Shown: positions 1 to 11,007, counted from the stretch's first letter. The stretch is DNA of 64,000 bases from Acidobacteriota bacterium (GCA_037444305.1 JBBIMP010000018.1:1-64000), one strand, 5' to 3'. The notes: generated by a model not told the origin, from the letters alone. Numbers and translations are program-made.

Positions 1-574
1 CCAACCCCGGATTTTGTCGCGGCATGGCGCGACAAGAATCCTTAATTTGTTGGGCAGCGTCCTGGGTGTCGCGCAAAGGAAGGTCGTGCTGGGGATGCGA
101 CTCGACCTCCAGCGATAGCCCCAGCTTATGAAGATCTTCTCTCGACTTGGGACTGACGAAGCGCCGCGCCGAGCCAAGGTACACCGCGACCGGCTTTTGC
201 TGCGCGACTAGGTTTCGGACATTCTCAAGCGTTCCGCGGCTCTTTCCGTCCCAAAGCATCAGGCCATAGGAGGCATCATTGGCCATCTGTTTGTCTTTCG
301 CGGAATAGAGTTCAAACCCACGCGCTCCGCTCGGTGGGTTGACGAGGCAAACCTTCCAGTGGCCGACGTTATTGCGAACGGATCCGGCTATCGCGTAAAC
401 GATTACTCGCTCGTAGTCCCGATCTGCCAAATGCTGCTGCAGAGCGCGATCGGCGCCATTGGCGTCGCCGACAAAGAACCATAGGCCTCGGTCAATGAGG
501 TCGTTGAGTTTAGACCTGATGCTGTCGTTGAGCCGAGCGATCCGTCGTGAACCACCGAGAAATACCGCTTCCAT
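1..574 (-). CDS. SLOG-superfamily (DprA/Smf/LOG-like Rossmann) protein. N-terminal ~190 aa; the gene runs off the window start.
   Basis: The reverse-complement ORF starts at ATG 574..572 and has no stop before position 1. Translation: MEAVFLGGSRRIARLNDSIRSKLNDLIDRGLWFFVGDANGADRALQQHLADRDYERVIVYAIAG... The GGS..(x)..VGDANGAD..(x)..VIVYA pattern is typical of SLOG/DprA-like Rossmann folds. Its ATG overlaps the stop of the upstream PRTase (ggcTGAtcATG). Confidence 0.45.
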   Translation of the reverse strand, partial: MEAVFLGGSRRIARLNDSIRSKLNDLIDRGLWFFVGDANGADRALQQHLADRDYERVIVYAIAGSVRNNVGHWKVCLVNPPSGARGFELYSAKDKQMANDASYGLMLWDGKSRGTLENVRNLVAQQKPVAVYLGSARRFVSPKSREDLHKLGLSLEVESHPQHDLPLRDTQDAAQQIKDSCRAMPRQNPGL

Positions 575-576
575 GA

Positions 577-1178
577 TCAGCCCCGAGTTTTTGTCAACGC
601 AAGGGCGAAAACCGCGGAAACGCCCCCGGATTCCTTGAGGAGACGAGCGAGTGCATTCATCGTAGCGCCGGACTGGTAGAGGTCATCGAGAAGCAAAACC
701 CTTCGGCCCTTCAACCCTTCGCCCTCGATCGCGTGCACTCCTTGAGCAATTCAACGCGCTCCGCATAGTCGGCGTTCTTGAGTTCGGGCGTTGCCTTCGT
801 CTTCCGCACGCTTGTCTTGTCCACTGGCAGATCCAGCAGCCTTCCGAGTTCATCGGCGATCTGGTATAGCGGCTGGACTGCTCGACTCTTACTGGGCGAC
901 GCGGGAACGATGATATCGATTCCGGGGTTCCAGCCACGAACGAAGTCACAGGCAGCCTGGGCAATGGGTGTGACAGTCGATTGATCACCTCGGTACTTGA
1001 GCCTGTAGAACAGCTCTCCGAGCTCCGTGCGAGTGCTCTCGAACTGGGGATGTCCGTACTCGTTGTACCCGATGAACTCACTGCTGGTGACGTGGCGATC
1101 CAGAACACGGCCATCATCCCATGTCCCATGCAACGGTCTCGGATTCAGTTGCATCTTGTCCTCAGCTACGCTGCCCAA
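577..1178 (-). pseudogene. ComF/GntX-type phosphoribosyltransferase (PRTase), split by a frameshift in a gaaggg repeat tract
   Basis: The N-terminal ORF (1178..711) contains IDIIVPASPSKSRAVQPLYQIADELGRLL, matching the ComF-type motif D-x-IVPVP...RG-FNQ. After a frame change near 700-745, the C-terminal half reads KGRRVLLLDDLYQSGATMNALARLLKESGG, the PRPP-binding loop typical of type I PRTases (VLLVDD..TG.T). The two frames overlap within the repeat gagggcgaagggttgaagggccgaagggtt. Confidence 0.6.
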
Positions 1179-1246
1179 CGGGAAGCATCAGCTGCGGCGC
1201 GCGCTTTGCGCCGTCGACTGGATGCTGTTGTTAGCCGGGCTCTCTC

Positions 1247-1459
1247 TCACAGCAGCTTCCGGAATTGCTCTGGAGTGAGCCCAGCGTCGCGGGCGATTCC
1301 ACCCATCGTCAGGGCATTCACAGGATTGTGCCTTGGGACTGTGAGAATTCTGACCCCGTCGGACATGACGACATGTTTCCCCTGACGGATGATCCGAAAG
1401 CCCGCTTTCTCAAGTGCACGAGCTGCCTCCAGGTGATTGATGCCCGGTATCTTTGGCAC
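1247..1459 (-). CDS. hicA: HicA-family mRNA interferase toxin
   Basis: 70 aa: MPKIPGINHLEAARALEKAGFRIIRQGKHVVMSDGVRILTVPRHNP... This is a YcfA/HicA-like fold with a ..GKH..h....tvP.H.. pattern, and it sits immediately downstream of hicB. Confidence 0.78.
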   Translation of the reverse strand: MPKIPGINHLEAARALEKAGFRIIRQGKHVVMSDGVRILTVPRHNPVNALTMGGIARDAGLTPEQFRKLL

Positions 1460-1462
1460 GAG

Positions 1463-1660
1463 TCAGCCCGCGACCTCGATTTCTCGGATCACAGCATCTC
1501 TCAGGAGTTCGTCGCGCGCTTCGAGATATTCCTTGATGGCCTCTTGGATGTTGGCTAGCGCCTCATCCTCAGTGGCGCCCTGGGACCAACATCCTGGGAG
1601 TCCAGGAACAGATACACTGTAGCCCTCGTCAGTCTCATGCAAAGCTATTTTATACCTCAT
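1463..1660 (-). CDS. hicB: HicB-family antitoxin (short UPF0150 form)
   Basis: 65 aa: MRYKIALHETDEGYSVSVPGLPGCWSQGATEDEALANIQEAIKEYLE. This is the classic HicB/UPF0150 signature. There is a 4-bp gap to hicA. Confidence 0.75.
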   Translation of the reverse strand: MRYKIALHETDEGYSVSVPGLPGCWSQGATEDEALANIQEAIKEYLEARDELLRDAVIREIEVAG

Positions 1661-1879
1661 GTTGCCTCTTGCCTAAAGTATACACCCGCGCCCCTCCGGC
1701 TAACGCGAGCTGCGGATCAGCGGCGGGCCGCGTAGCGGACCGGCCGCTGCATCGCGTTGTTAGCGGCCCCTTGTCATCCTACCGCACGGCCCCCAGGAAA
1801 GGTAGTAGAGTCCGCGTGATAGCTGTGGCGGGCGTATCCGGCGCTCTAGCAAGGCGTCACAGGCCTCTCCAGGGTGCCG

Positions 1880-1908
1880 TTGACAAATCAGTCAACGCCA
1901 GCTAGGAT
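1880..1908 (+). promoter_or_regulatory. Near-consensus sigma70 promoter with an embedded palindrome, upstream of the MTase
   Basis: TTGACA (1880-1885), a 17-nt spacer, then TAGGAT (1903-1908), with the ATG at 1915. The inverted repeat TTGAC-N6-GTCAA (1880-1895) overlaps the -35 region and is a likely operator for the N-terminal XRE HTH of the downstream protein. Confidence 0.55.
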
Positions 1909-1914
1909 GGCACC

Positions 1915-4440
1915 ATGACTTTCGGGGCCTTCATTCGCGACCGTCGAGCAGCGCTCGGGATATCTCTCCGGGTCGCTGCCCAGAAGCTCGGGGTCGACGC
2001 AGCTCATCTGTCCCGTGTCGAAGCCGGTAAGGTACCCGTCTCTGAACAACTGATCCATCGCCTGGCGGGGGTTCTCGAATGCGAGGCAGACGAGCTGCTG
2101 CTCCTAGCCGGACGCCTTCCAGAATCCATCCGTGCCATGGTGGTGCAGCAGCCGTACCGCGCGACGGCTGCGCTGAGAACAATGGCCGAGATGTGCGTGG
2201 CTGAACCAGGCGTGCCCTACGGAGAGCCGCTCTTCGCCGAGCGAGGAGTGCGCGTCATCGAAGACGGCTTTCCCTTCGAGGAGATCAGCGAGATCGCTGA
2301 GGTCGAGAGCTGGCGCAAGGAGATTTACAGGCCCATCTACCACGTCCACAAGTGGTGGGCGCAGCGGTTGGGTTCCGTGTTCCGAGCGGCAATTCTCGGC
2401 GCGGCAGCCCCCAAGGGTTCATCGGTCTTGGACCTCTTCTACGAGCCGGTTCGTCTACCGGGCGTCGTGGTTTTCGACCCGTTCATGGGGAGCGGGACCA
2501 CAGTCGGCGAGGCGCGGAAGCTCGGTTGCACTGTTATCGGGCGCGACATTAACCCAGTGGCGTACCGTGCGGTTCGCGTCGCACTCGGCCCTGTGGACAG
2601 GGGAAGGGTGCACGAGCATTTCCGGAAGCTCGAATCCGGTGTCGGCAAAGAGATCAAGAAGCTGTACAGTTCGGTTGACAGTGACAGAGAGCTATGCGAC
2701 GTCCTCTACTTCTTCTGGGTTAAGGTCGTTCCGTGTCCTAAGTGCCAGGCGAAGGTCGACCTCTTCTCGAGCTACGTTTTCGCGACGCACGCGTACAAAA
2801 AGCAGAACCCGGAGGCCAAAATCATCTGTCCAGAGTGCGGCGATGTTTTCTCTGGGCGACACGACGACACCCAGGTCGCATGCCGATGTGGCGCTCGCTT
2901 CAATCCGCAAGAGGGGCCGGCCAAGCGAACCACAGCAATTTGCCGCCTGTGCGGGCACGAATTCCCGATTGCGAAGACTGCGAAAAGCGCCGGGAGGCCT
3001 CCGGATCACCGGCCCTACGCGAAGTTAGTGCTTCGGAAGGACGGAAGCAAGGAATACCTTGGGATCACGGACGGCGACCTGTCTGCGTTCATGGCCGCAA
3101 GGAACCGCCTGAGAGACTTCGATCCACCGCTTCCTAGTGTACCCATCGGCGACGGCCACAACACGCGCCAGATCCTGAACTACGGGTATCGGCACTGGCA
3201 CGAGTTGTTCAATGAGCGCCAGCTCCTGGCCCTGACGATGCTAGCAGGCGCGATTCGGGACATCCCGGAGAACTCGGCTCGGGATGCGCTCGCCGTACTC
3301 TTCTCGGGCATACTTGAGTTCAACAACATGTTCGCATCGTACAAGGGAGAAGGCACCGGCGCGGTGCGGCATATGTTCTCACACCACATCCTCAAGCCAG
3401 AGCGGACGCCCATCGAGGCGAACATCTGGGGGACGCCGCGGAGTTCGGGTGCCTTCTCGACGCTGTACGAATCCCGGTTGCTTCGCGCGCTGGATTACCG
3501 CGACGCCCCCTTCGAACTCGCGGTTGAGTACAGAGGCCCACGCAAGACAGGAAGGAAGGTAGTGGGTGTCAGCCCGCCGATCGGTGGGCCGATAATAGAG
3601 CGGTACCCGAAAGGCGGTCTTAAGCCCGGCGCTACATACCTCTCTTGCGGGGACTCGTCTGCCACGGACCTCCCCGACAAGAGCGTTGACCTCGTGATAA
3701 CGGACCCGCCTTTTTTTGACAACGTCCACTACTCTGAGCTCGCCGATTTCTTCTTCGTCTGGCAACAGCTTTACTTCGGTGACGGTTCATTCAGTGGCGC
3801 CTGTACCACCCGCCGGGACGCCGAAGTTCAGGACGTCGAAGCCGGTGCGTTCGCAGACAAGCTCGGCAAGGTCTTTGCGGAATGCCACCGTGTGCTGCGA
3901 GACGAAGGCGTCCTCGTCTTCAGCTATCACCACTCGCGCGAGGATGGGTGGGTTGCGGTCGCGCAGGCCGTTTTGGGTGCCGGCTTCAACATAGTTCAGA
4001 GCCAGCCCGTCAAGGCCGAGATGTCGGTCGCCGCTCCGAAAAGTCAGGCGAAGGAGTCTATCGACCTCGACGTACTGATCGTCTGCCGCAAACGAAAATC
4101 CGACCCGCGGCCGCGGCGTGCTGATGAGGGAGTTTTGCAACGAGCTGTCGCGAGCGCCGAGGAAAAGGTTAGACGGTTCAACAGCGTGGGCCGACATCTC
4201 TCTCGAAACGATGTGCGCGTCATTTTGCTAAGTCAGGTCCTGGTGGAACTGAGCGTGGGGAGGACGGCGAGCGAGGTGGGGGTTTCGCTCAAGGCCCTAC
4301 TGCCGAAGACCCGCAGCATCATCGAGAGGTCATGGAAGGACCAGAACGTGCGGGAACCATCGGGTCCCGTTGCGCCGCAGCCAGGGGCGGTGCAGCGTGA
4401 ATTGTGGGAAACACTGCCTACACGCGGAACGGGAGCCTAA
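1915..4440 (+). CDS. XRE-HTH::DUF1156 (COG1743) N6-adenine DNA methyltransferase with a Zn-ribbon
   Basis: 841 aa. N-terminus: GISLRVAAQKLGVDAAHLSRVEAG (XRE-type HTH). DUF1156 N-terminal signature: IEDGFPFEEISEIAEVESWRKEIYRPIYHVHKWWAQR. Motif I: VVFDPFMGSGTTVGEA. Cys clusters CPKCQ...CPECG / CRLCGHEF form the Zn-ribbon. Motif IV: DLVITDPPFFDNVHYSELADFF. Confidence 0.85.
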   Translation: MTFGAFIRDRRAALGISLRVAAQKLGVDAAHLSRVEAGKVPVSEQLIHRLAGVLECEADELLLLAGRLPESIRAMVVQQPYRATAALRTMAEMCVAEPGVPYGEPLFAERGVRVIEDGFPFEEISEIAEVESWRKEIYRPIYHVHKWWAQRLGSVFRAAILGAAAPKGSSVLDLFYEPVRLPGVVVFDPFMGSGTTVGEARKLGCTVIGRDINPVAYRAVRVALGPVDRGRVHEHFRKLESGVGKEIKKLYSSVDSDRELCDVLYFFWVKVVPCPKCQAKVDLFSSYVFATHAYKKQNPEAKIICPECGDVFSGRHDDTQVACRCGARFNPQEGPAKRTTAICRLCGHEFPIAKTAKSAGRPPDHRPYAKLVLRKDGSKEYLGITDGDLSAFMAARNRLRDFDPPLPSVPIGDGHNTRQILNYGYRHWHELFNERQLLALTMLAGAIRDIPENSARDALAVLFSGILEFNNMFASYKGEGTGAVRHMFSHHILKPERTPIEANIWGTPRSSGAFSTLYESRLLRALDYRDAPFELAVEYRGPRKTGRKVVGVSPPIGGPIIERYPKGGLKPGATYLSCGDSSATDLPDKSVDLVITDPPFFDNVHYSELADFFFVWQQLYFGDGSFSGACTTRRDAEVQDVEAGAFADKLGKVFAECHRVLRDEGVLVFSYHHSREDGWVAVAQAVLGAGFNIVQSQPVKAEMSVAAPKSQAKESIDLDVLIVCRKRKSDPRPRRADEGVLQRAVASAEEKVRRFNSVGRHLSRNDVRVILLSQVLVELSVGRTASEVGVSLKALLPKTRSIIERSWKDQNVREPSGPVAPQPGAVQRELWETLPTRGTGA

Positions 4441-4933
4441 ACCGACCGCGCGGGCGCGTCCTAGCCTCGCGATCCGGTGTGGGAAACGGGTCCACGAGCT
4501 GGGTAATGGACCAGCCCTCCGGCGCGTCGGAGCGGCGTCGATAGCAATAGAACCTTCGGGTGGTGCCTTCTGAGACGGACCGACGCAGCCTGTATGCAAG
4601 CTGCAGATCCGGCTCCTTACGCGGAACGTCCTCATCTGGGTGGATCAGGATAGGCAAGCCATCGAACTCCCGAGCACCGAGGGGGTTGGCGAAGATGAGC
4701 ATAGGTCGAGCCCGGTCGGCTCCGTCGCCATACGTCCCGAGTCCGATGCGTTTCTGGCGCTCGCCTGTGATGCTCAGGTACAGTTCAAAGTCCTCGTTCA
4801 GGGCGTTGCCATCCACCAGGCACAAGGCCGTCAGGACAACAGTCTGCGCGTCGTCGGGGGCGCACTCCAAGCAAACGAATAGGTAGAAGCCGCGGATGTC
4901 GAGGGCTGCACCCGCTGCATCATAGACGCGCAC
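4418..4933 (-). CDS. Hypothetical protein, probably the C-terminal part of a frameshifted nuclease-like gene
   Basis: 171-aa ORF that overlaps the upstream ORF 4831..5301 by about 100 bp in another frame. Convergent with, and abutting, the 3' end of the MTase gene. Confidence 0.3.
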   Translation of the reverse strand: MRVYDAAGAALDIRGFYLFVCLECAPDDAQTVVLTALCLVDGNALNEDFELYLSITGERQKRIGLGTYGDGADRARPMLIFANPLGAREFDGLPILIHPDEDVPRKEPDLQLAYRLRRSVSEGTTRRFYCYRRRSDAPEGWSITQLVDPFPTPDREARTRPRGRFRLPFRV

Positions 4934-5301
4934 ACGCCCGCAGGGGGCGTAGTGTTGTAATCGAGTCCAGAGCCTCGGGCGACACCGCCCTGCGCCGTCC
5001 GCTCCAGTTTCTTGACCTCAATGCCCACGATGCGGTTGATGTCGGTTGTTCGGTGCTTGAGGTCCATTCCTTCGCACATGCGAGGCCGGTACAGGACCAT
5101 GTCGGGGGTGATGAGCGGCCCGGTCGCCCTCGCGCACGAGATCGCTTCGATGCCTGTGAGCACTTCTGTGACAAGGTACTCGTCGAACGGATCGTCTTGG
5201 GTGTTTCGTTTGTCACGAAGTCTGAACGGTACCGGTCGTCCTGCGCTATCGAAAAACCGGTGGCGCAGTGCCAGAAAGGCGAATGTGGGGAGGTCGATCA
5301 T
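4831..5301 (-). CDS. Hypothetical PD-(D/E)xK-like protein; candidate restriction endonuclease, N-terminal part
   Basis: 156 aa containing ..TPDMVLY.. followed about 25 aa later by ..INRIVGIEVKK.. (a PD...E-x-K arrangement). Frame overlap with ORF 4418..4933 suggests a single disrupted gene. Confidence 0.3.
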   Translation of the reverse strand: MIDLPTFAFLALRHRFFDSAGRPVPFRLRDKRNTQDDPFDEYLVTEVLTGIEAISCARATGPLITPDMVLYRPRMCEGMDLKHRTTDINRIVGIEVKKLERTAQGGVARGSGLDYNTTPPAGVCASMMQRVQPSTSAASTYSFAWSAPPTTRRLLS

Positions 5302-5590
5302 GTCCTTGCCTCACTGGTTACGGGGAATGTCTCATCAGGTGCCGCTTATATTATGCGGGTCTCGATAGCTGGATAGGCCGCCAGTCGGCACCCGCTCAAA
5401 CCATCGAGAATATATCTCTCATAGCACAATGTTGTTTAAAGTCAAACGGTTATGCGGAAGCTGATGGGCGGCATATCCAGCTATGCTGCGAGTTCCGCCC
5501 GCTTAACTGGATAACAAGGGCGAAGTTTTGCTGAATCCCACTGCTCCCTTGGCGGACGGGTTCTGTATACTCCCCCTCGCCGCCACAAAC

Positions 5591-6682
5591 TCACATGCCG
5601 GTATCCAGCGGACTCCGAACCTCTCGGCCGCCACGATTCAGCACATGTGTGCAGATCATCGTCGTGCTCACGTCGCTGTGCCCTAGAAGCTCCTGAATCG
5701 TCCGGATGTCGTACCCTGCCTCCAGCAAATGCGTCGCAAAAGAATGACGCAGCGAATGACAGCTTGCCGGCTTCGCAATTCGCGCCTGGAGGGCTGCCCT
5801 GCGGACCGCTTTCTGCAATACCGACTCGTGAAGATGATGCCTGCGCTTCCTCCCCGACGAGGAATCCCAATAATGCCGGGTCGCCGGAAATACCCACTGC
5901 CAGCTCCATTCCCACGGAGCCTTGGGATACTTTCGCTCGATTGCCTGAGGCAACTCGACGCTCCCCGCCCCGCGTCGAAGATCCTCCCCATGCCTTTGGC
6001 GCACTCTTTCGATGTGCGCGGCCAGCGGTTCCGAAACTTTGCCCGGGAGAAGCGTCACCCGATCCTTGTTCCCCTTGCCGTCACGAACCGTAATTTCACT
6101 CCGGGCAAAATCCACATCCTTGATGCGCAGCCGACAGCATTCGAGCAGTCGCAAGCCGGCACCATAGAGCAGGGAGGCCATGATCCATTCCACCCCTCGC
6201 AGGTTGCCCAATAGGGCTGTTACTTCCGAGCGCGAAAGCACTACAGGCAGATGAACAGGCCGCTTCGCCCTCACGATGCCGGCGACCCACTCGAGGTCCG
6301 CCTGCAGCACCTCCCGGTAAAGAAATACCAGCGCGCATAACGCCTGGTTCTGCGTGGACGCGCTGACCCTGCCCTTGACCGCAAGATGGGTCAGAAACTG
6401 CGAGATCTCTGCCTCGCCCATCTCAGCCGGGTGCCGCTTGCCGTGAAAAAGAATGAATCGGCGAATCCAGCCGACGTATGACTTGGCCGTTCTGCGGCTG
6501 TAGCTGCGCCGCAAGATCTCGTCGCGGACACGGTCCAGCAGTTTCGGTTTTTGCGGGCAGAGAGAGACATTCTCACACACGAATGCGGCGGCCCGAGCAC
6601 AGCAGAATAGAAAATCGGCGGCAACATCTGATGGCTTCGCATCGGCGGTCACCAGAGGTTCAACGATCGATTCTTGGAGCAT
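5591..6682 (-). CDS. intI: Integron integrase IntI (tyrosine recombinase)
   Basis: Contains [39 protein letters not shown] (R-H-R-Y catalytic region). Also contains the IntI-specific additional domain [50 protein letters not shown], which aligns with IntI1 ALERKYPRAGHSWPWFWVF...[22 protein letters not shown]. The [12 protein letters not shown] box is also present. Confidence 0.9.
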
Positions 6683-7101
6683 TTCACCTCATAAGTTGCC
6701 CGAACGCCAGAGATATTTCAGCAGCGCGCCGGCAAATCCAATAACCGGGTCGTATCCCCCGCGAAAAACAGCAACGGGCTTTTCCTGCTTGAAACAAGAT
6801 GGCGCCGGTTGCGGCGTAAATCGCCGGCAATAGTCGTTGGCGGCAGGCGAAATCAAGGACTTCCCGGCGCTGGCGGCGCATGCGGCGACAAGGATTAGGA
6901 GAGAAGCGATGCCCCAGCGCTGGGCTGTTTCCCTTCGCGGGGACAGCGCGATCAGAAAGGCTCGCGGACGCATGCCTTGGCGCTGAACGAACCCGTGCTC
7001 CCGTTCAGTGTCTTGGGATCGAGATCCACCGTGTGCGTTTTGTAGGCGCTGCCGATTCAACCGGTGGCACGGGCGCCGCATGCGCGATCCAATTGTCCCA
7101 C

Positions 7102-7146
7102 TTGACGAGCTCTGTGACTCCTAGTAGCATGAGCGTGTGAGTCACA
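7102..7146 (+). promoter_or_regulatory. Promoter with a dyad operator upstream of, and overlapping, the vapB start
   Basis: TTGACG (7102-7107), a 17-nt spacer, then TAGCAT (7125-7130). The 8-bp inverted repeat TGTGACTC (7113-7120) / GAGTCACA (7139-7146) brackets the -10 and the GTG start, typical of RHH antitoxin autoregulation. Confidence 0.5.
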
Positions 7147-7364
7147 GACTGCAGGTCCTTATTCCCGAAGAATTGGATGCCCGTGTGCGCAAAGCGTCGC
7201 AGCGTTGCCGTATTTCCAAGGGGGAGTGGGTGCGACGGGCCATCGAACGCACCCTGGCCGAAGACGGGGCAACAGCCGAACCCCTCTCTCAACTGGCCTC
7301 ATTGGAGGCGCCCACGGCCGACATTGACCAGATGCTGGAGGAAATCGAAACGGGGCGCACGTGA
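7137..7364 (+). CDS. vapB: Ribbon-helix-helix (CopG/VapB-type) antitoxin
   Basis: 75 aa with a GTG start: ..HRLQVLIPEELDARVRKASQRCRISKGEWVRRAIERTL. This is an RHH beta-strand plus two helices. Its stop overlaps the vapC start (7361). Confidence 0.72.
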   Translation: MSHRLQVLIPEELDARVRKASQRCRISKGEWVRRAIERTLAEDGATAEPLSQLASLEAPTADIDQMLEEIETGRT

Positions 7365-7765
7365 GGGTTTTCATCGACTCCAACATTCCGATGTATGTCG
7401 CCGGCCGCGAACATCCTCACCGAGAACCGGCGCGCCGCTTATTGGAGAAGGTCCGCGCCGCCGAGCTGGAAGCATGCACCAGCACGGAAGTTCTGCAGGA
7501 AATCCTTTACCGCTACACTGCCTTGCAACGGCTGGACCTGGCACGACGGGTGTATGAGCTCTTCGTGCTGATTTGTCCGGTGATCTATCCCGTAACCCTG
7601 GCCGATACCGACCGCGCGAAGCAACTGGTATGCGGCGGAGGCAGCATCGGGGTTCGCGATGCGATTCACGCCGCCGTCATGCTGAACAACGACGTCCACA
7701 ACGTTGCGACGTTCGATGCAGCCTTCGACCTGATCCCGGGAGTGCGCCGCCTGCCTCTGGATTGA
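7361..7765 (+). CDS. vapC: PIN-domain toxin VapC
   Basis: 134 aa beginning MRVFIDSNIPMY (PIN N-terminal acidic residue), with ..DAIHAAVMLNNDVHNVATFDAAFD (C-terminal conserved Asp). Confidence 0.82.
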   Translation: MRVFIDSNIPMYVAGREHPHREPARRLLEKVRAAELEACTSTEVLQEILYRYTALQRLDLARRVYELFVLICPVIYPVTLADTDRAKQLVCGGGSIGVRDAIHAAVMLNNDVHNVATFDAAFDLIPGVRRLPLD

Positions 7766-7864
7766 AGGGCAAAGATCTTCCCCACCTGCTGAGGCAATGC
7801 ATGATAGATCCGGATTCAAGGGACTATCCGAGGAGCGGAGTTTCGATCGCAGGCTTTTGGCGGA

Positions 7865-8917
7865 TCAGCGGCCTGCCGCCGCGAGCTGGCCGCAGGCGGC
7901 GGCGATGTCGTGGCCGCCGCTGTAACGGCGGTGCGTGGCCAGCCCCGCCCGGTGCAGAACTTCGCGGAATGCGGATTCCGTCTCGCGAGCCGTCCGCCGG
8001 AATTCGTCCCGCCCGCCGGCGTCGGCGTTGTAGGGGACGATGCTGATCCGCGGCCGCACGCCCGTGGCGCGCACGAAATCCCGGCCGAGCCGCGCCAGCG
8101 CCGCAGCGTGCTCCGGGCTGTCGTTGACCCCTTCGAGAAGCGTCACGGCCCACATCGGCGCGATGCGCGTTTTGCGCGAATGATCGGCAACGGCGGCCAT
8201 TACCTGTTCGAGCGGGTGGGCGCGGTCGATCGGCATCAATCGGCGGCGGACCTCAGGCAGTGCGCTGCCGATCGAAATGCCAAGACGAACCTTGGGCGCC
8301 TCTGCGGCCAGCTGGCGAATGCCCTCGGGCAATCCCACGGTGCAGACTGTGATGGCTTTGGCGTTTACTGCCATCGTGCTCGGATTGCAGGCGACGGCGA
8401 TCGCCTGGAGCACTGCATCGAGATTGGCCAGCGGTTCCCCCATCCCCTGGAAGACAATCCCATGAATGCGTTCGCCGCGGCGGGGGTCCAGTCCGCCTCG
8501 GACAATCCGCAACTGTTCGATGATTTCCCACGCTTCCAGGTTCCGGTGCAGCCCAAGCCTGCCGGTGGCGCAGAAGGAACAACCGAGCCCGCAGCCGGCC
8601 TGCGAACTGACGCACACGGAGAAGCGGCCGGGACGGTCGAGCGGAATGCGGACGGCCTCCACGGTGCCGCCCCCCGGAACTTCCAGGATATATTTGATGA
8701 ACGGATCGACCCCACTCCGTTGATTGGCGCACACCGTCAGCTTCGGGAGCGATCCCGCAGCGGCGGCCGCGTCAATGACCGATTGCTTTACGCGCCGGAC
8801 AAACTCCAGGCCGCCTCCGCGGTGGATGCCGCTCGCTATTCTCCGGGCGTCGGTCAGGGAAATGCCGGGAATGATTTGAACCAGTTCATCCGGAGTCAGT
8901 GCCTGCAGAGCAATCAT
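7865..8917 (-). CDS. rlmN: Radical-SAM 23S rRNA/tRNA m2A methyltransferase RlmN
   Basis: 350 aa with the radical-SAM motif CSFCATG, plus GMGEPLAN and ..ISIVPYN.. regions, giving RlmN/Cfr family topology. Confidence 0.85.
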   Translation of the reverse strand: MIALQALTPDELVQIIPGISLTDARRIASGIHRGGGLEFVRRVKQSVIDAAAAAGSLPKLTVCANQRSGVDPFIKYILEVPGGGTVEAVRIPLDRPGRFSVCVSSQAGCGLGCSFCATGRLGLHRNLEAWEIIEQLRIVRGGLDPRRGERIHGIVFQGMGEPLANLDAVLQAIAVACNPSTMAVNAKAITVCTVGLPEGIRQLAAEAPKVRLGISIGSALPEVRRRLMPIDRAHPLEQVMAAVADHSRKTRIAPMWAVTLLEGVNDSPEHAAALARLGRDFVRATGVRPRISIVPYNADAGGRDEFRRTARETESAFREVLHRAGLATHRRYSGGHDIAAACGQLAAAGR

Positions 8918-8940
8918 AACAGGGGAGACAGGCGGTGCCG

Positions 8941-9150
8941 CCCTTTCAGGGCTTCCGGTTCACCTCCTGTCCGGCGATCCCAGGGCTTACGCCCTGGGCT
9001 TTCCTGCAGGACCCTTTCAGGGTCCATCATTTAGGTATCACCCCGGCCGGTCCGTTTTCAGAGTCCGCGTTTAGGTATCACCCCGGCCGGTCCCCTTTCA
9101 GGATTTGTTGTTTGGGTTCGATACCGGCCTATTCCTTTTCAGGATTCCTC
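8941..9150. repeat. Short direct-repeat array in the rlmN upstream region
   Basis: Two 34-bp near-identical units, TTTAGGTATCACCCCGGCCGGTCC(G/C)(T/C)TTTCAG(A/G)G, at 9030-9063 and 9070-9103. There are five copies of CYTTTCAGR. A perfect palindrome GGACCCTTTCAGGGTCC lies at about 9009-9025, and a hairpin CAGGGCTTACGCCCTG at about 8981-8996. Confidence 0.6.
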
Positions 9151-9174
9151 ACCTTGGTGTCTGTCTGCAATCCT

Positions 9175-10353
9175 CTAAAAGGCGAACAGGTAGTTGAGTT
9201 TGACGGCGAGGGAACGGTTCCGGATGTTGAACACGCCGCCCCACTCGTCGGTCTCATTGTACACGATGAAGAAATCGCTCCCCGGCCGGACGATCCAGTT
9301 GAAGCGGATATTGCTGGAGAACAGCCGGCTGTCGGTGTTGTACTGAAAGAGCGTCAGCAGAGCCATGTCGTTGCCGAAGGCAACCTGGAAGCGCGTGGAC
9401 ACCAGCTGAGTCGTGAACTTGCCCGCGGGGAGATCCACCCAGTTCACTTCGTAGCGGCCCGAGAGATCGAAATACCGGTTGATCCGGTAGCTGGTGTCGG
9501 CGGAGATTCGATCGCGCTCCCCGTTCCAGAACCCGCCCGTGTCGTAGGCCAGATTGAGGCGCACGTGCCTCCGGCGGAATGTGTCCAGACGTGCGGAGAA
9601 CGTGTTGAAGCGGTAGACTCCCGGCTGGATGGCCACTCCTGTCCTCAGCGCGAAAGGCTCCTCGATCTGCTCGAGCTGATTGACGACGGCTAAGGTCAGG
9701 GCGTCTCCGCTCTCGAACGTCGTGCCGACCGTGAGTTCACGGGTGCGGGTCTCGAGTATGTTCCCCTGGTCGGTCACGTACTGCAGCGAAGCGGAAAAAT
9801 CGAACTTGCGCACCCACTCCAGGCCCGGCCGCGGGCTGTAGCGCAGCTCGCCGGCGTTCTGCCGGCTGCCCGGCCGCCGCACGAAGCCGATCCCCGGCTG
9901 AAAGTTCTCCCCGGCGTCCATATACCGGTAATCGGCCCCCCAGCGGTCGGTGTCGTAGGCGAAGCGCAGATAGGCGGAGTGCGCGCCCTCTTCGATGTCA
10001 GGCGCGTCCACCTTTGCCAGGAAGCCCTCGAGCGCCCAGGCCTGCTTGAAGAGAAAGCCGGCATCCGCTCCGAAGACTCGATTGAAGCCGCCGCCTCCTT
10101 CGCGGTTGGTGAACAGCGCACCGATGCTGGAACGGCTCTCGATGTCGCGGCGGACGCGCAGGACGGTGAAGTTGTCGGCTGCAAAGCCGTGCTCCTCGCC
10201 CGTCTGAATGTTCATCGCGCCGATGCTGTAGGGCCCCTGGCGCCCGGAAAGGCGGGCGCCGGCGCGTATGGGAATGATTCGCCCGTTGGGCGAAAGGCCG
10301 ATGCGCCGGGTGAAGACGAGGTCGTTCTGGCGGGGCACGCCGAACTGGAACAT
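9175..10353 (-). pseudogene. DUF5916-family outer-membrane protein, C-terminal fragment (beta-barrel ending ..NYLFAF)
   Basis: 392-aa ORF ending with the outer-membrane C-terminal Phe signature. Separated from the upstream CBM9-like fragment by a frame break at 10353-10420. Confidence 0.55.
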
Positions 10354-10419
10354 CCGCTCCCCTTCCAGGAAGAACTGCCGCTTCTCGGGGAAAAAGAGTG
10401 AAAAGCGCGTGAAGTTGAT

Positions 10420-11007
10420 CTACTGGACGTCGACTTCCTCCTGGGCAAAGTCCGTGTTGACGGTGAAATCGGCGGTGAGTCCCGAGGTGACTCCCCATTT
10501 CACGTCCAGGCCGGCGTCGGCGCGGCCCTCGGTGGGCGTCCCCTGCCCGCCATAGCCCGCGCCGGCGAGCGCATAAGGCCGGGCTTCGATGCTGCGGCCC
10601 GGTTCGATCCCGCGCAGGCCGTGCAGGTGCCCCAGTTCCGCCGGCCGGTACCAGCTGGAATCATTGGGGACGAAAGGCCAGTAGACCCCTTCGTTCTTGC
10701 GCGGGATGTTGCGCTTGAAGCCGATCCCGAAAATCACATCGCCGCCGTCGGCCGGCGATTGAAAACGGAGGGACTTGAACGGGATGGCGACCTCCACCTC
10801 CCACCCGGCCGGATTCCAGCTGCCCTGGGCGTGCCAGACCGCGTCCCAGTTGTGGTTGCGGGTTTCAGTGGATTCGCCCGTTTGAAACAGGTCCTCTATC
10901 AGGCCGTTGGCGTTGGTGACAAACTGGATCGCGGTGCGATGGTCGTTGTAGGCATCGAGCAGGATCGAGACCAGATCGTCCGCGCCGGCGTTCTCGTCGC
11001 GGAACAT
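10420..11007 (-). pseudogene. CBM9-like N-terminal fragment of the same DUF5916 protein
   Basis: 195 aa: ..NHNWDAVWHAQGSWNPAGWEVEVAIPFKSLRF.. (CBM9/DOMON-like). No signal peptide is present, so the gene looks truncated and frameshifted. Confidence 0.5.

Follow-up and report, generated by a model that had tools for sequence, protein, structure and literature searches.

Where does the cassette array of an integron lie if its integrase gene is seen next to a single toxin-antitoxin operon, and can such a platform still capture cassettes? These questions arise from a 64,000-nucleotide stretch of DNA from an Acidobacteriota bacterium (GCA_037444305.1, JBBIMP010000018.1:1-64000; hereafter 'the window'), in which the integron integrase gene intI stands divergent from vapBC. 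A sequence-only reading had described the locus as In0-like, or as a decayed chromosomal integron, with vapBC as its one cassette at most. Our findings suggest instead that the minus strand of window positions 1 to 6682 is, with good probability, a co-oriented chromosomal integron whose capture machinery is most likely dead and whose array is frozen, with vapBC being an unrelated neighbor (feature coordinates are collected in Table 1). The In0-like description fails since, 3' of intI and on the minus strand from 5520 to 1, no fewer than three cassettes and as many attC sites can be seen. Both attC and attI had been overlooked because only the divergent (5') side of intI was examined.

The proposal that intI encodes a true integron integrase is borne out. 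Its product matches TIGR02249 with 457 bits (cut-off 265), contains the Pfam domains Phage_int_SAM_4 and Phage_integrase, and can be aligned end to end with Vibrio cholerae VchIntIA (PDB 2A3V; E = 5e-88) through the IntI-specific insertion, that is, it is a tyrosine recombinase carrying the IntI-specific additional domain. The nearest genomic relative, exhibiting 84% identity, is encoded at a locus (L001) of a Terriglobia metagenome-assembled genome (MAG).

The attC sites were located with two covariance models. The first, R1, was built from four L001-type sites and recovered, independently, a fifth attC site of L001 as well as attC arrays in dozens of IntI relatives; for the second, R2, 73 attC sites from relatives were used. 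When R2 was applied to the entire 64 kb with filters off, only two significant sites were obtained, both on the minus strand: attC1, with 44.7 bits (E = 3e-9) versus 10.7 bits on the plus strand, and attC2, with 56 bits (E = 4e-12), the structure of which is shared with the L001 attC sites and exhibits compensatory pairs. attC1 is located 3,824 bp from the intI stop codon, so that an attC site is present within about 4 kb of intI, and it also represents the best fold per nucleotide in the window (1698-1765) in a scan for AAC...GTT hairpins. This crude scan was discarded as an attC finder because it yields dozens of false positives in DNA of 60-65% GC content, and Rfam at its gathering thresholds provided neither a match nor any attC family. 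A truncated third site, attC3, is probable rather than certain. It is cut off at window position 1, which is the end of contig CAZIEJ010000014.1 (GCA_964538715.1); over 12 nt, its flank ACGCTGCCCAAC (60 to 49) is exactly reverse-complementary to the start of cassette 3, GTTGGGCAGCGT (1179 to 1168), and its hairpin has a folding z-score of -3.2, with 0 of 200 shuffles folding equally well.

An integrated cassette begins with TTRRRY, which completes the R' box of the preceding site, and this start is reverse-complementary to the R'' box in the attC of the same cassette. Cassettes 2 and 3 start in this way after the G, with complementarity to their own R'' over 9 and 12 nt, respectively; for cassette 2, the start TTAGCCGG pairs with the attC2 R'' flank CCGGCTAAC. 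Cassette 1 follows the rule only if a 4-nt TTAG is put back, as is discussed below.

The attI region begins about 70 bp past the intI stop codon, is about 175 bp long, and contains three TATCCAG(C/T)TA boxes: box 1 (5514 to 5501), an inverted copy (5484 to 5454) and a direct copy (5395 to 5365). The latter two reside in the arms of an inverted repeat, for which the sequence-only reading had noted a 12-bp pair within 5355-5489 and considered a degenerate recombination site. The repeat is real, but its arms (5365-5395 and 5454-5484) comprise 31 nt each, enclose an AT-rich spacer of 58 nt, and are part of a conserved attI. Built from two of the three boxes, the resulting imperfect palindrome spans about 120 nt and has a hairpin folding z-score of -5.8. 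The region ends with ...CGCATAATATAAG, up to the crossover nucleotide G5345, and a TATAAT-like element is located 8 nt ahead of the crossover. DNA similarity between the window and L001 is limited to 5345-6652, that is, to intI and about 250 bp 3' of it, and ends exactly at G5345.

Alignment of the 3' flanks shows that this architecture is common to six related loci with 73-84% IntI identity, which share the order of a TTATCCAG(Y)TAAGC box, the inverted and direct box copies, and a terminal ...(C/T)ATA(A/C)T(A/T)T(A/T)AG. Eight related attI sequences (five from genomic or assembly loci and three from metagenome contigs) read AG↓TT, where the arrow marks the crossover, and then continue with unrelated sequence or different cassettes; at five related loci (L001, L085, L088, L089 and L092) the R'' of the first attC has its reverse complement in the 8-9 nt that directly follow the G. 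The three metagenomic junctions were retrieved with a degenerate attI 32-mer, an exact 26-mer having given no match in the metagenome contigs, while a search of 80 loci for the TTATCCAG motif with two mismatches proved too noisy to identify attI relatives. Across seven sequences, 61% of cells in the palindrome are paired compared with 28-36% in slid controls, and its covariation score was reached by 0 of 500 shuffles. Given so few sequences, this is only suggestive of a conserved folded structure, and inverted protein-binding sites would fit equally well. A sigma-70 scan for a cassette promoter yielded only a 9-of-12 match (5438 to 5409), the -35 and -10 elements of which are not conserved in the relatives. 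As far as we could find, the attI sequence type of this co-oriented clade, with its three TATCCAG boxes and 120-nt imperfect palindrome, is uncharacterized in the literature.

The mapping of attI and attC bears directly on the overall layout: the minus strand carries intI as well as attC1, attC2 and attC3, and along it intI is followed first by attI and then by the cassettes. This is the co-orientation that defines the inverted integron-integrase group. Such a layout is known from Treponema and other lineages (PMC4889954, PMC8352920, PMC3575428), and the group is reported to be paraphyletic (PMC4889954). All ten closest relatives examined (L001, L085-L089, L092, L094-L096; 73-84% identity) have downstream plus-strand attC sites or small co-oriented ORFs; in L001, attC sites of the same shape directly follow intI on its own strand. 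Among more distant relatives (54-65% identity) both layouts occur. For one relative it appears that cassettes are turned over at attI: contigs encoding an identical integrase (P0003, 81% identical to the window IntI) share attI and differ by one cassette at the attI junction, with L085 and L087 exhibiting an extra cassette (197-aa ORF) ahead of the one standing first in L086 and L088. The scaffold gaps of L086 and L088 are located exactly at that junction. Such a difference is what insertion or excision by the integrase leaves behind at attI, and it is evidence of cassette turnover at the population level.

In light of this layout, the view that the locus is an In0-like or relic integron, with vapBC as its sole cassette if any, retains hardly any probability. 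Toxin-antitoxin cassettes are common in integrons, and vapBC is indeed divergent and starts 454 bp from the start of intI, which is the classical position of a cassette. However, as the earlier inspection had likewise found for 6683-7136 and 7766-7864, neither a GTTRRRY core on the plus strand of 6683-8000 nor an attC site in 6683-7865 could be identified, the latter with both covariance models and without filters (best E = 7, inside vapC). With neither attC, R'' nor R' around it, vapBC lacks the flanking attC sites that were to promote the locus to a functional integron; it is past the opposite end of intI that the conserved attI and three attC sites are located, the close relatives all have downstream arrays, and conservation with L001 does not extend to the region 5' of intI. 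The mapping of attC and attI thus refutes this view, and vapBC is an unrelated neighboring toxin-antitoxin operon, not an integron cassette.

A second possibility is that the attC sites within 1-1767 form a CALIN of their own (a cluster of attC sites without nearby intI; PMC4889954), located 3.8 kb from intI by chance, and that the restriction-modification (R-M) unit in between is ordinary chromosomal DNA. No attC site was found inside that segment with either covariance model, so that the nearest one is indeed 3.8 kb away from intI, and the segment does not start with TTRRRY. On the other hand, strand and direction of the attC sites agree with the polarity of attI, the attI crossover is the exact point at which homology to L001 stops, the sequence following the G matches the R'' flank of attC1 if 4 nt are put back, and large defense cassettes are known in chromosomal integrons (bioRxiv 10.1101/2024.07.02.601686), as are arrays of toxin-antitoxin and defense cassettes. 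We therefore consider a chance neighborhood very improbable, and treat the segment as cassette 1 of the co-oriented integron.

All three visible cassettes are of the addiction or defense type. Cassette 1 carries an endonuclease-like gene with a PD..EVK motif (5301 to 4418, minus strand), which is frameshifted at a C-run near 4945, and, convergent to it, a gene (1915-4440, plus strand) for an 841-residue N6/N4 DNA methyltransferase fused to a helix-turn-helix (HTH) domain, matching N6_N4_Mtase and HTH_31 as well as the PADLOC models MTase_II and DUF1156_MTase. The endonuclease-like sequence comprises two ORFs that overlap in different frames and have no match in PADLOC, Pfam or NCBIfam; from their arrangement we infer that they are one broken gene. 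Ahead of the methyltransferase gene, an inverted repeat with arms of 17 nt (1868-1884, 1891-1907) overlaps a promoter-like TTGACA-17-TAGGAT (1880-1908). Along with the N-terminal HTH domain, this repeat suggests C-protein-like self-regulation of an R-M unit that is carried backwards in its cassette. Cassette 2 encodes HicB and HicA (Pfam HicB_lk_antitox, 1.9e-11; HicA_toxin, 4.2e-8). Cassette 3 contains a gene for a ComF/PsyrT/ShosT-like phosphoribosyltransferase (PRTase; 1154 to 577), frameshifted near 735, and a second ORF (574 to 2; 190 aa) with a GDANGAD motif and no family match in Pfam, NCBIfam or PADLOC. When the two PRTase ORFs are conceptually fused, they align in a single stretch across the join with PsyrT (1.2e-13), ShosT and ComF; for the PRTase ORF with a TTG start, no database record was found. 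The pair may represent a streamlined PsyrTA/Shosta-like toxin-antitoxin or defense system with a knocked-out toxin.

Can this integron still recombine? The catalytic set R-K-H-R-H-Y (R135, K160, H267, R270, H293 and Y302 in VchIntIA) is incomplete in the window IntI: R178, K203, H309, R312 and H335 are kept, and Cys344 occupies the position of the nucleophile Y302 (IntI1 Y312; ..TTQIYTHVL.. in 2A3V versus ..TTMICTHVL.. in the window). The codon is TAC in L001 and TGC here (5653 to 5651). Among 117 IntI relatives this position is Tyr in 116 and Cys in none; in a separate comparison it is Tyr at 79 of 82 loci. Y302 counts among the residues that cannot be mutated (PMC3108266), and Y302F is the standard catalytic-dead control in published IntI work. 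All eight binding residues of PMC3108266 (L, P, KYP, RHH) are kept, and IntI-C344 has probably retained DNA binding while having lost cleavage. Cys at the same position is also seen in a 57% identical IntI on a Gemmatimonadetes MAG contig (L044; CAITQY010000658.1), showing that the same Tyr-to-Cys transition arose independently there; since the search pattern that led to this contig included the Cys itself, the finding allows no estimate of how frequent the change is.

The second lesion concerns the attI core. Where relatives read AG↓TT, the window reads AAG↓CGG, and the G↓TT crossover core adjoining intI is thus missing. The attC1 R'' flank, GGGGCCGCTAAC, predicts a cassette start G↓TTAGCGGCCCC in place of the observed G↓CGGCACC, and hence a junction AAG↓TTAGCGGCC in place of AAG↓CGGCAC; an undeleted junction would read AAGTTAGCGG / AAGTTAGCGGC, with ATAATATAAG being the attI end that leads to the crossover. 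Taking TTAG out of the predicted cassette start produces the window sequence with one mismatch, and TTAGCG does not occur on the minus strand of 1-5600. The junction is best explained by a 4-bp deletion of TTAG between AG repeats as the simplest history, which would have removed the GTT triplet at which IntI cuts.

In a sense, then, the earlier description as 'decayed' holds. As a refutation of its view, by which the integrase would be merely a relic, the sequence-only reading had named inactivating substitutions in the integrase along with missing attI and attC sites. The former is found in Cys344, but attI and attC sites exist. Hence, the locus is a complete integron by structure (a 'complete integron' in the nomenclature of IntegronFinder; PMC4889954) and a probable relic by function, with inactivity of the platform being the most likely state as judged from its sequence. 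In close relatives, comparison shows that IntI inserts circular cassettes at ...TAAG↓TT... in the attI 3' of intI, where they are stacked co-directionally; in the window, the array is read in the direction of intI from attI on and runs off the contig end at position 1. With attI presumably uncuttable after loss of the GTT core, and IntI-C344 presumably non-cleaving, the array would be frozen and the R-M cassette locked in first position. It might be moved only by an IntI provided in trans and acting on the intact attC sites, and the frameshifts in the endonuclease and PRTase genes would represent further decay of this copy.

Several observations weigh against this reading of the locus or against parts of the evidence for it. 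(i) IntI shows no general decay: it deviates at two of the columns conserved to at least 95%, which is the family median, and the Cys change must therefore be recent, tolerated or an error. (ii) The inactivating change documented in the literature for the nucleophile is Tyr to Phe, not Tyr to Cys. (iii) The TTAG deletion rests on a 6/7 match after an assumed gap, for which we estimate a chance probability of a few per cent. (iv) The junction is present in one assembly only, Logan contig L082 (its position 3706 corresponding to window position ~5354) ending 9 nt before it. (v) The NCBI MAG and the Logan contigs are probably derived from the same reads, so that their agreement does not exclude a consensus error. 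(vi) No homologue was retrieved for the endonuclease frameshift. (vii) The attC models were built for the present analysis and are distinct from the attC model of IntegronFinder. (viii) attC3 was detected by neither of them, and the site thus rests on manual reading of the 12-nt repeat and the fold.

A rival explanation is that the integron is fully functional, with Cys344, the missing TTAG and the frameshifts being consensus or assembly errors of a mixed population, or with Cys344 being tolerated. IntI is otherwise perfectly conserved, the R' cores of the attC sites are intact, all assemblies probably go back to one read set, and Logan contigs break at attI and inside attC sites as variant arrays would give. 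However, the records for independent Logan assemblies of SRR11582151 contain this IntI protein and an identically split PRTase gene, that is, the same protein and split genes were obtained with two assemblers. Moreover, the in-frame stop codon of a nearby DUF5916-like gene is a substitution, indicative of real pseudogenization in this stretch and speaking against an assembly artefact of the indel type alone. Y302 counts as non-mutable, and an inactivated integrase has been reported for 10-46% of integrons, above all those of soil and freshwater bacteria (PMC3108266). On balance we consider full function unlikely and favor the inactivated, frozen integron. As to the breakpoints themselves, they are located 9 nt before the attI crossover (L082) and inside attC1 and attC3 (ends of L084, at window positions ~1726 and ~26), which is the pattern expected if alternative arrays in the population, or repeated attC sequences, are present.

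Could an IntI unable to cleave have been retained for another purpose? One may imagine that, still bound to the TATCCAG boxes of attI, it influences expression of the locked first cassette, either as a repressor or as an architectural protein. The intact 363-aa ORF, the fully conserved set of binding residues, the single anomalous conserved-site change besides C344, and the intact boxes are in line with this idea. A single sequence, however, cannot separate recent inactivation from purifying selection, we found no precedent in the literature, and the endonuclease gene of the first cassette is itself broken; a retained non-catalytic role thus appears improbable to us. Somewhat more credit, if still doubtful, may be given to the broader proposal that the locus combines a distinct attI architecture (~175 bp, three TATCCAG(Y)TA repeats and a palindrome around a promoter-like spacer) with a naturally locked integron, in which an R-M cassette is fixed in the first expressed position and a non-cutting IntI is possibly kept as a regulator.

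How, then, does the preferred structure, a co-oriented and probably inactivated integron, relate to known systems? With the inverted integron-integrase group (the Treponema denticola type; the group of Boucher 2007), in which we place it by layout and nearest relatives, the window shares co-transcription of intI with attC sites and cassettes, an attI and array 3' of intI, soil or freshwater hosts and small arrays; it differs by the Cys nucleophile and the missing GTT core of attI. With classical integrons (class 1 In; V. cholerae IntIA) it has in common (i) the integrase family with the IntI-specific insertion, (ii) R''/L''/L'/R' boxes and extrahelical base, (iii) the G↓TT crossover, and (iv) an array rich in toxin-antitoxin and defense cassettes. 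In those integrons, however, intI and the array diverge, with attI and the cassette promoter Pc located 5' of intI, where the window has nothing of the kind. Like the integrase-inactivated integrons, for example of Xanthomonas (PMC3108266), it exhibits a mutated essential residue and a persisting array, but the lesions are a single missense change of the nucleophile in a pristine ORF and a micro-deletion in the attI core, and not a frameshift, stop codon or insertion sequence (IS). The term In0 (intI without attC) does not apply given two attC sites at E < 1e-8 and a third, partial one, and neither does CALIN, since intI and attC, 3.8 kb apart, are joined through attI.

The integrase family, the attC structure, the co-oriented layout, arrays of toxin-antitoxin and defense genes and frequent integrase inactivation are all known already. 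Specific to the present locus are the combination of a nucleophile missense with an attI-core micro-deletion, and the comparative definition of the attI of its clade; this definition (an AAG↓TT crossover, three repeated boxes and a conserved palindrome) can be tested experimentally. For genome annotation it matters that the array is located 3' of intI in many phyla other than the Proteobacteria: if only the divergent side is searched, complete integrons are miscalled as In0 and neighboring toxin-antitoxin operons as cassettes. The locus also adds an uncultured, soil-type MAG to the integrons with addiction and defense arrays (R-M, HicAB, PsyrT/ShosT-like), and to those with an inactivated integrase, a state reported to be common in soil and freshwater lineages.

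Table 1. Features of the co-oriented integron and of the neighboring vapBC operon (window coordinates; the arrow marks the crossover)
Feature	Position	Strand	Basis or remarks
attC3 (partial)	1..55	-	R'' GCCCAAC 55 to 49; stem 35-14 with extrahelical bottom-strand G; R' GTTGG 5 to 1
Cassette 3, PRTase gene and 190-aa ORF	1..1178	-	end missing at contig end
attC2	1173..1236 (model 1171-1238)	-	R'' GGCTAAC ... R' GTTGGGC; crossover G1179↓T1178
Cassette 2, hicBA	1179..1703	-	hicB 1660 to 1463, hicA 1459 to 1247; toxin-antitoxin pair
attC1	1698..1765 (model 1696-1767)	-	R'' CGCTAAC ... R' GTTAGCC; crossover G1704↓T1703
Cassette 1, R-M unit, 3.6 kb	1704..5344	-	ORFs, family matches, attC1 end
Damaged attI/cassette junction AAG↓CGGCAC	5344..5345	-	comparison with attC1 R'' flank and relatives
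attI region, 3' of intI stop	5345..5520 (read 5520 to 5345)	-	homology to L001, conserved architecture
intI, integron integrase	5591..6682	-	363-aa intact ORF; TIGR02249, Pfam, 2A3V alignment
Codon 344, TGC (Cys), nucleophile position	5651..5653	-	alignment to 2A3V; codon read from DNA
vapB-like ribbon-helix-helix (RHH)	7137-7364	+	RHH match weak
PIN/vapC	7361-7765	+	PIN 2.7e-15

The remaining features are located 5' of intI. Patterns resembling LexA boxes (GTTC-N7-GTTC, GAAC-N4-GTTC and CTGT-N8-ACAG) gave only unconvincing matches with one mismatch in this region. An ORF at 6689-7081 (minus strand) was rejected as a gene; it is probably non-coding because it has no family match and a GC3 (0.63) that does not exceed its GC1. 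The stem-loop CTGAACG-N12-CGTTCAG, which had been proposed as a further degenerate recombination site at about 7006-7031, is present, but at 6983-7008; with a 7-bp stem, a z-score of -3.0 and 2 of 200 shuffles folding equally well it is unremarkable, and nothing ties it to recombination. Ahead of vapB, a promoter-like TTGACG-17-TAGCAT (7102-7130) is spanned by a perfect 10-nt inverted repeat, TCTGTGACTC/GAGTCACAGA (7111-7120 and 7139-7148), which is probably the operator for autoregulation by VapB.

The next gene, 7865-8917 (minus strand), had been taken for housekeeping rlmN. Its scores fall below every curated cut-off for RlmN and Cfr (PRK14470, 261 versus 441; TIGR00048, 222 versus 290; Cfr, 198 versus 550), so that it is a divergent RlmN/Cfr-like radical-SAM methyltransferase and not certainly a housekeeping enzyme. 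The intergenic region 8918-9175 contains internal repeats with units of ~46 bp (..TTTAGGTATCACCCCGGCCGGTCC..TTTCAG..), and an 85-bp piece of it recurs twice, inverted and with 73-75% identity, in L001 (14527-14608 and 14702-14781), just past the cassette array, possibly as a small dispersed repeat or MITE-like element. The DUF5916-like gene (9175-11007, minus strand) has its in-frame stop codon at 10420-10422 (..EEVDVQ-stop-INFTRFSLFFPEKR..). A homologue with 29-54% amino acid identity directly precedes intI in L085-L088 (L085 3206-5467), which implies partial synteny of the window with these integrons; in the window, the rlmN-like gene and vapBC stand between the DUF5916-like gene and intI.

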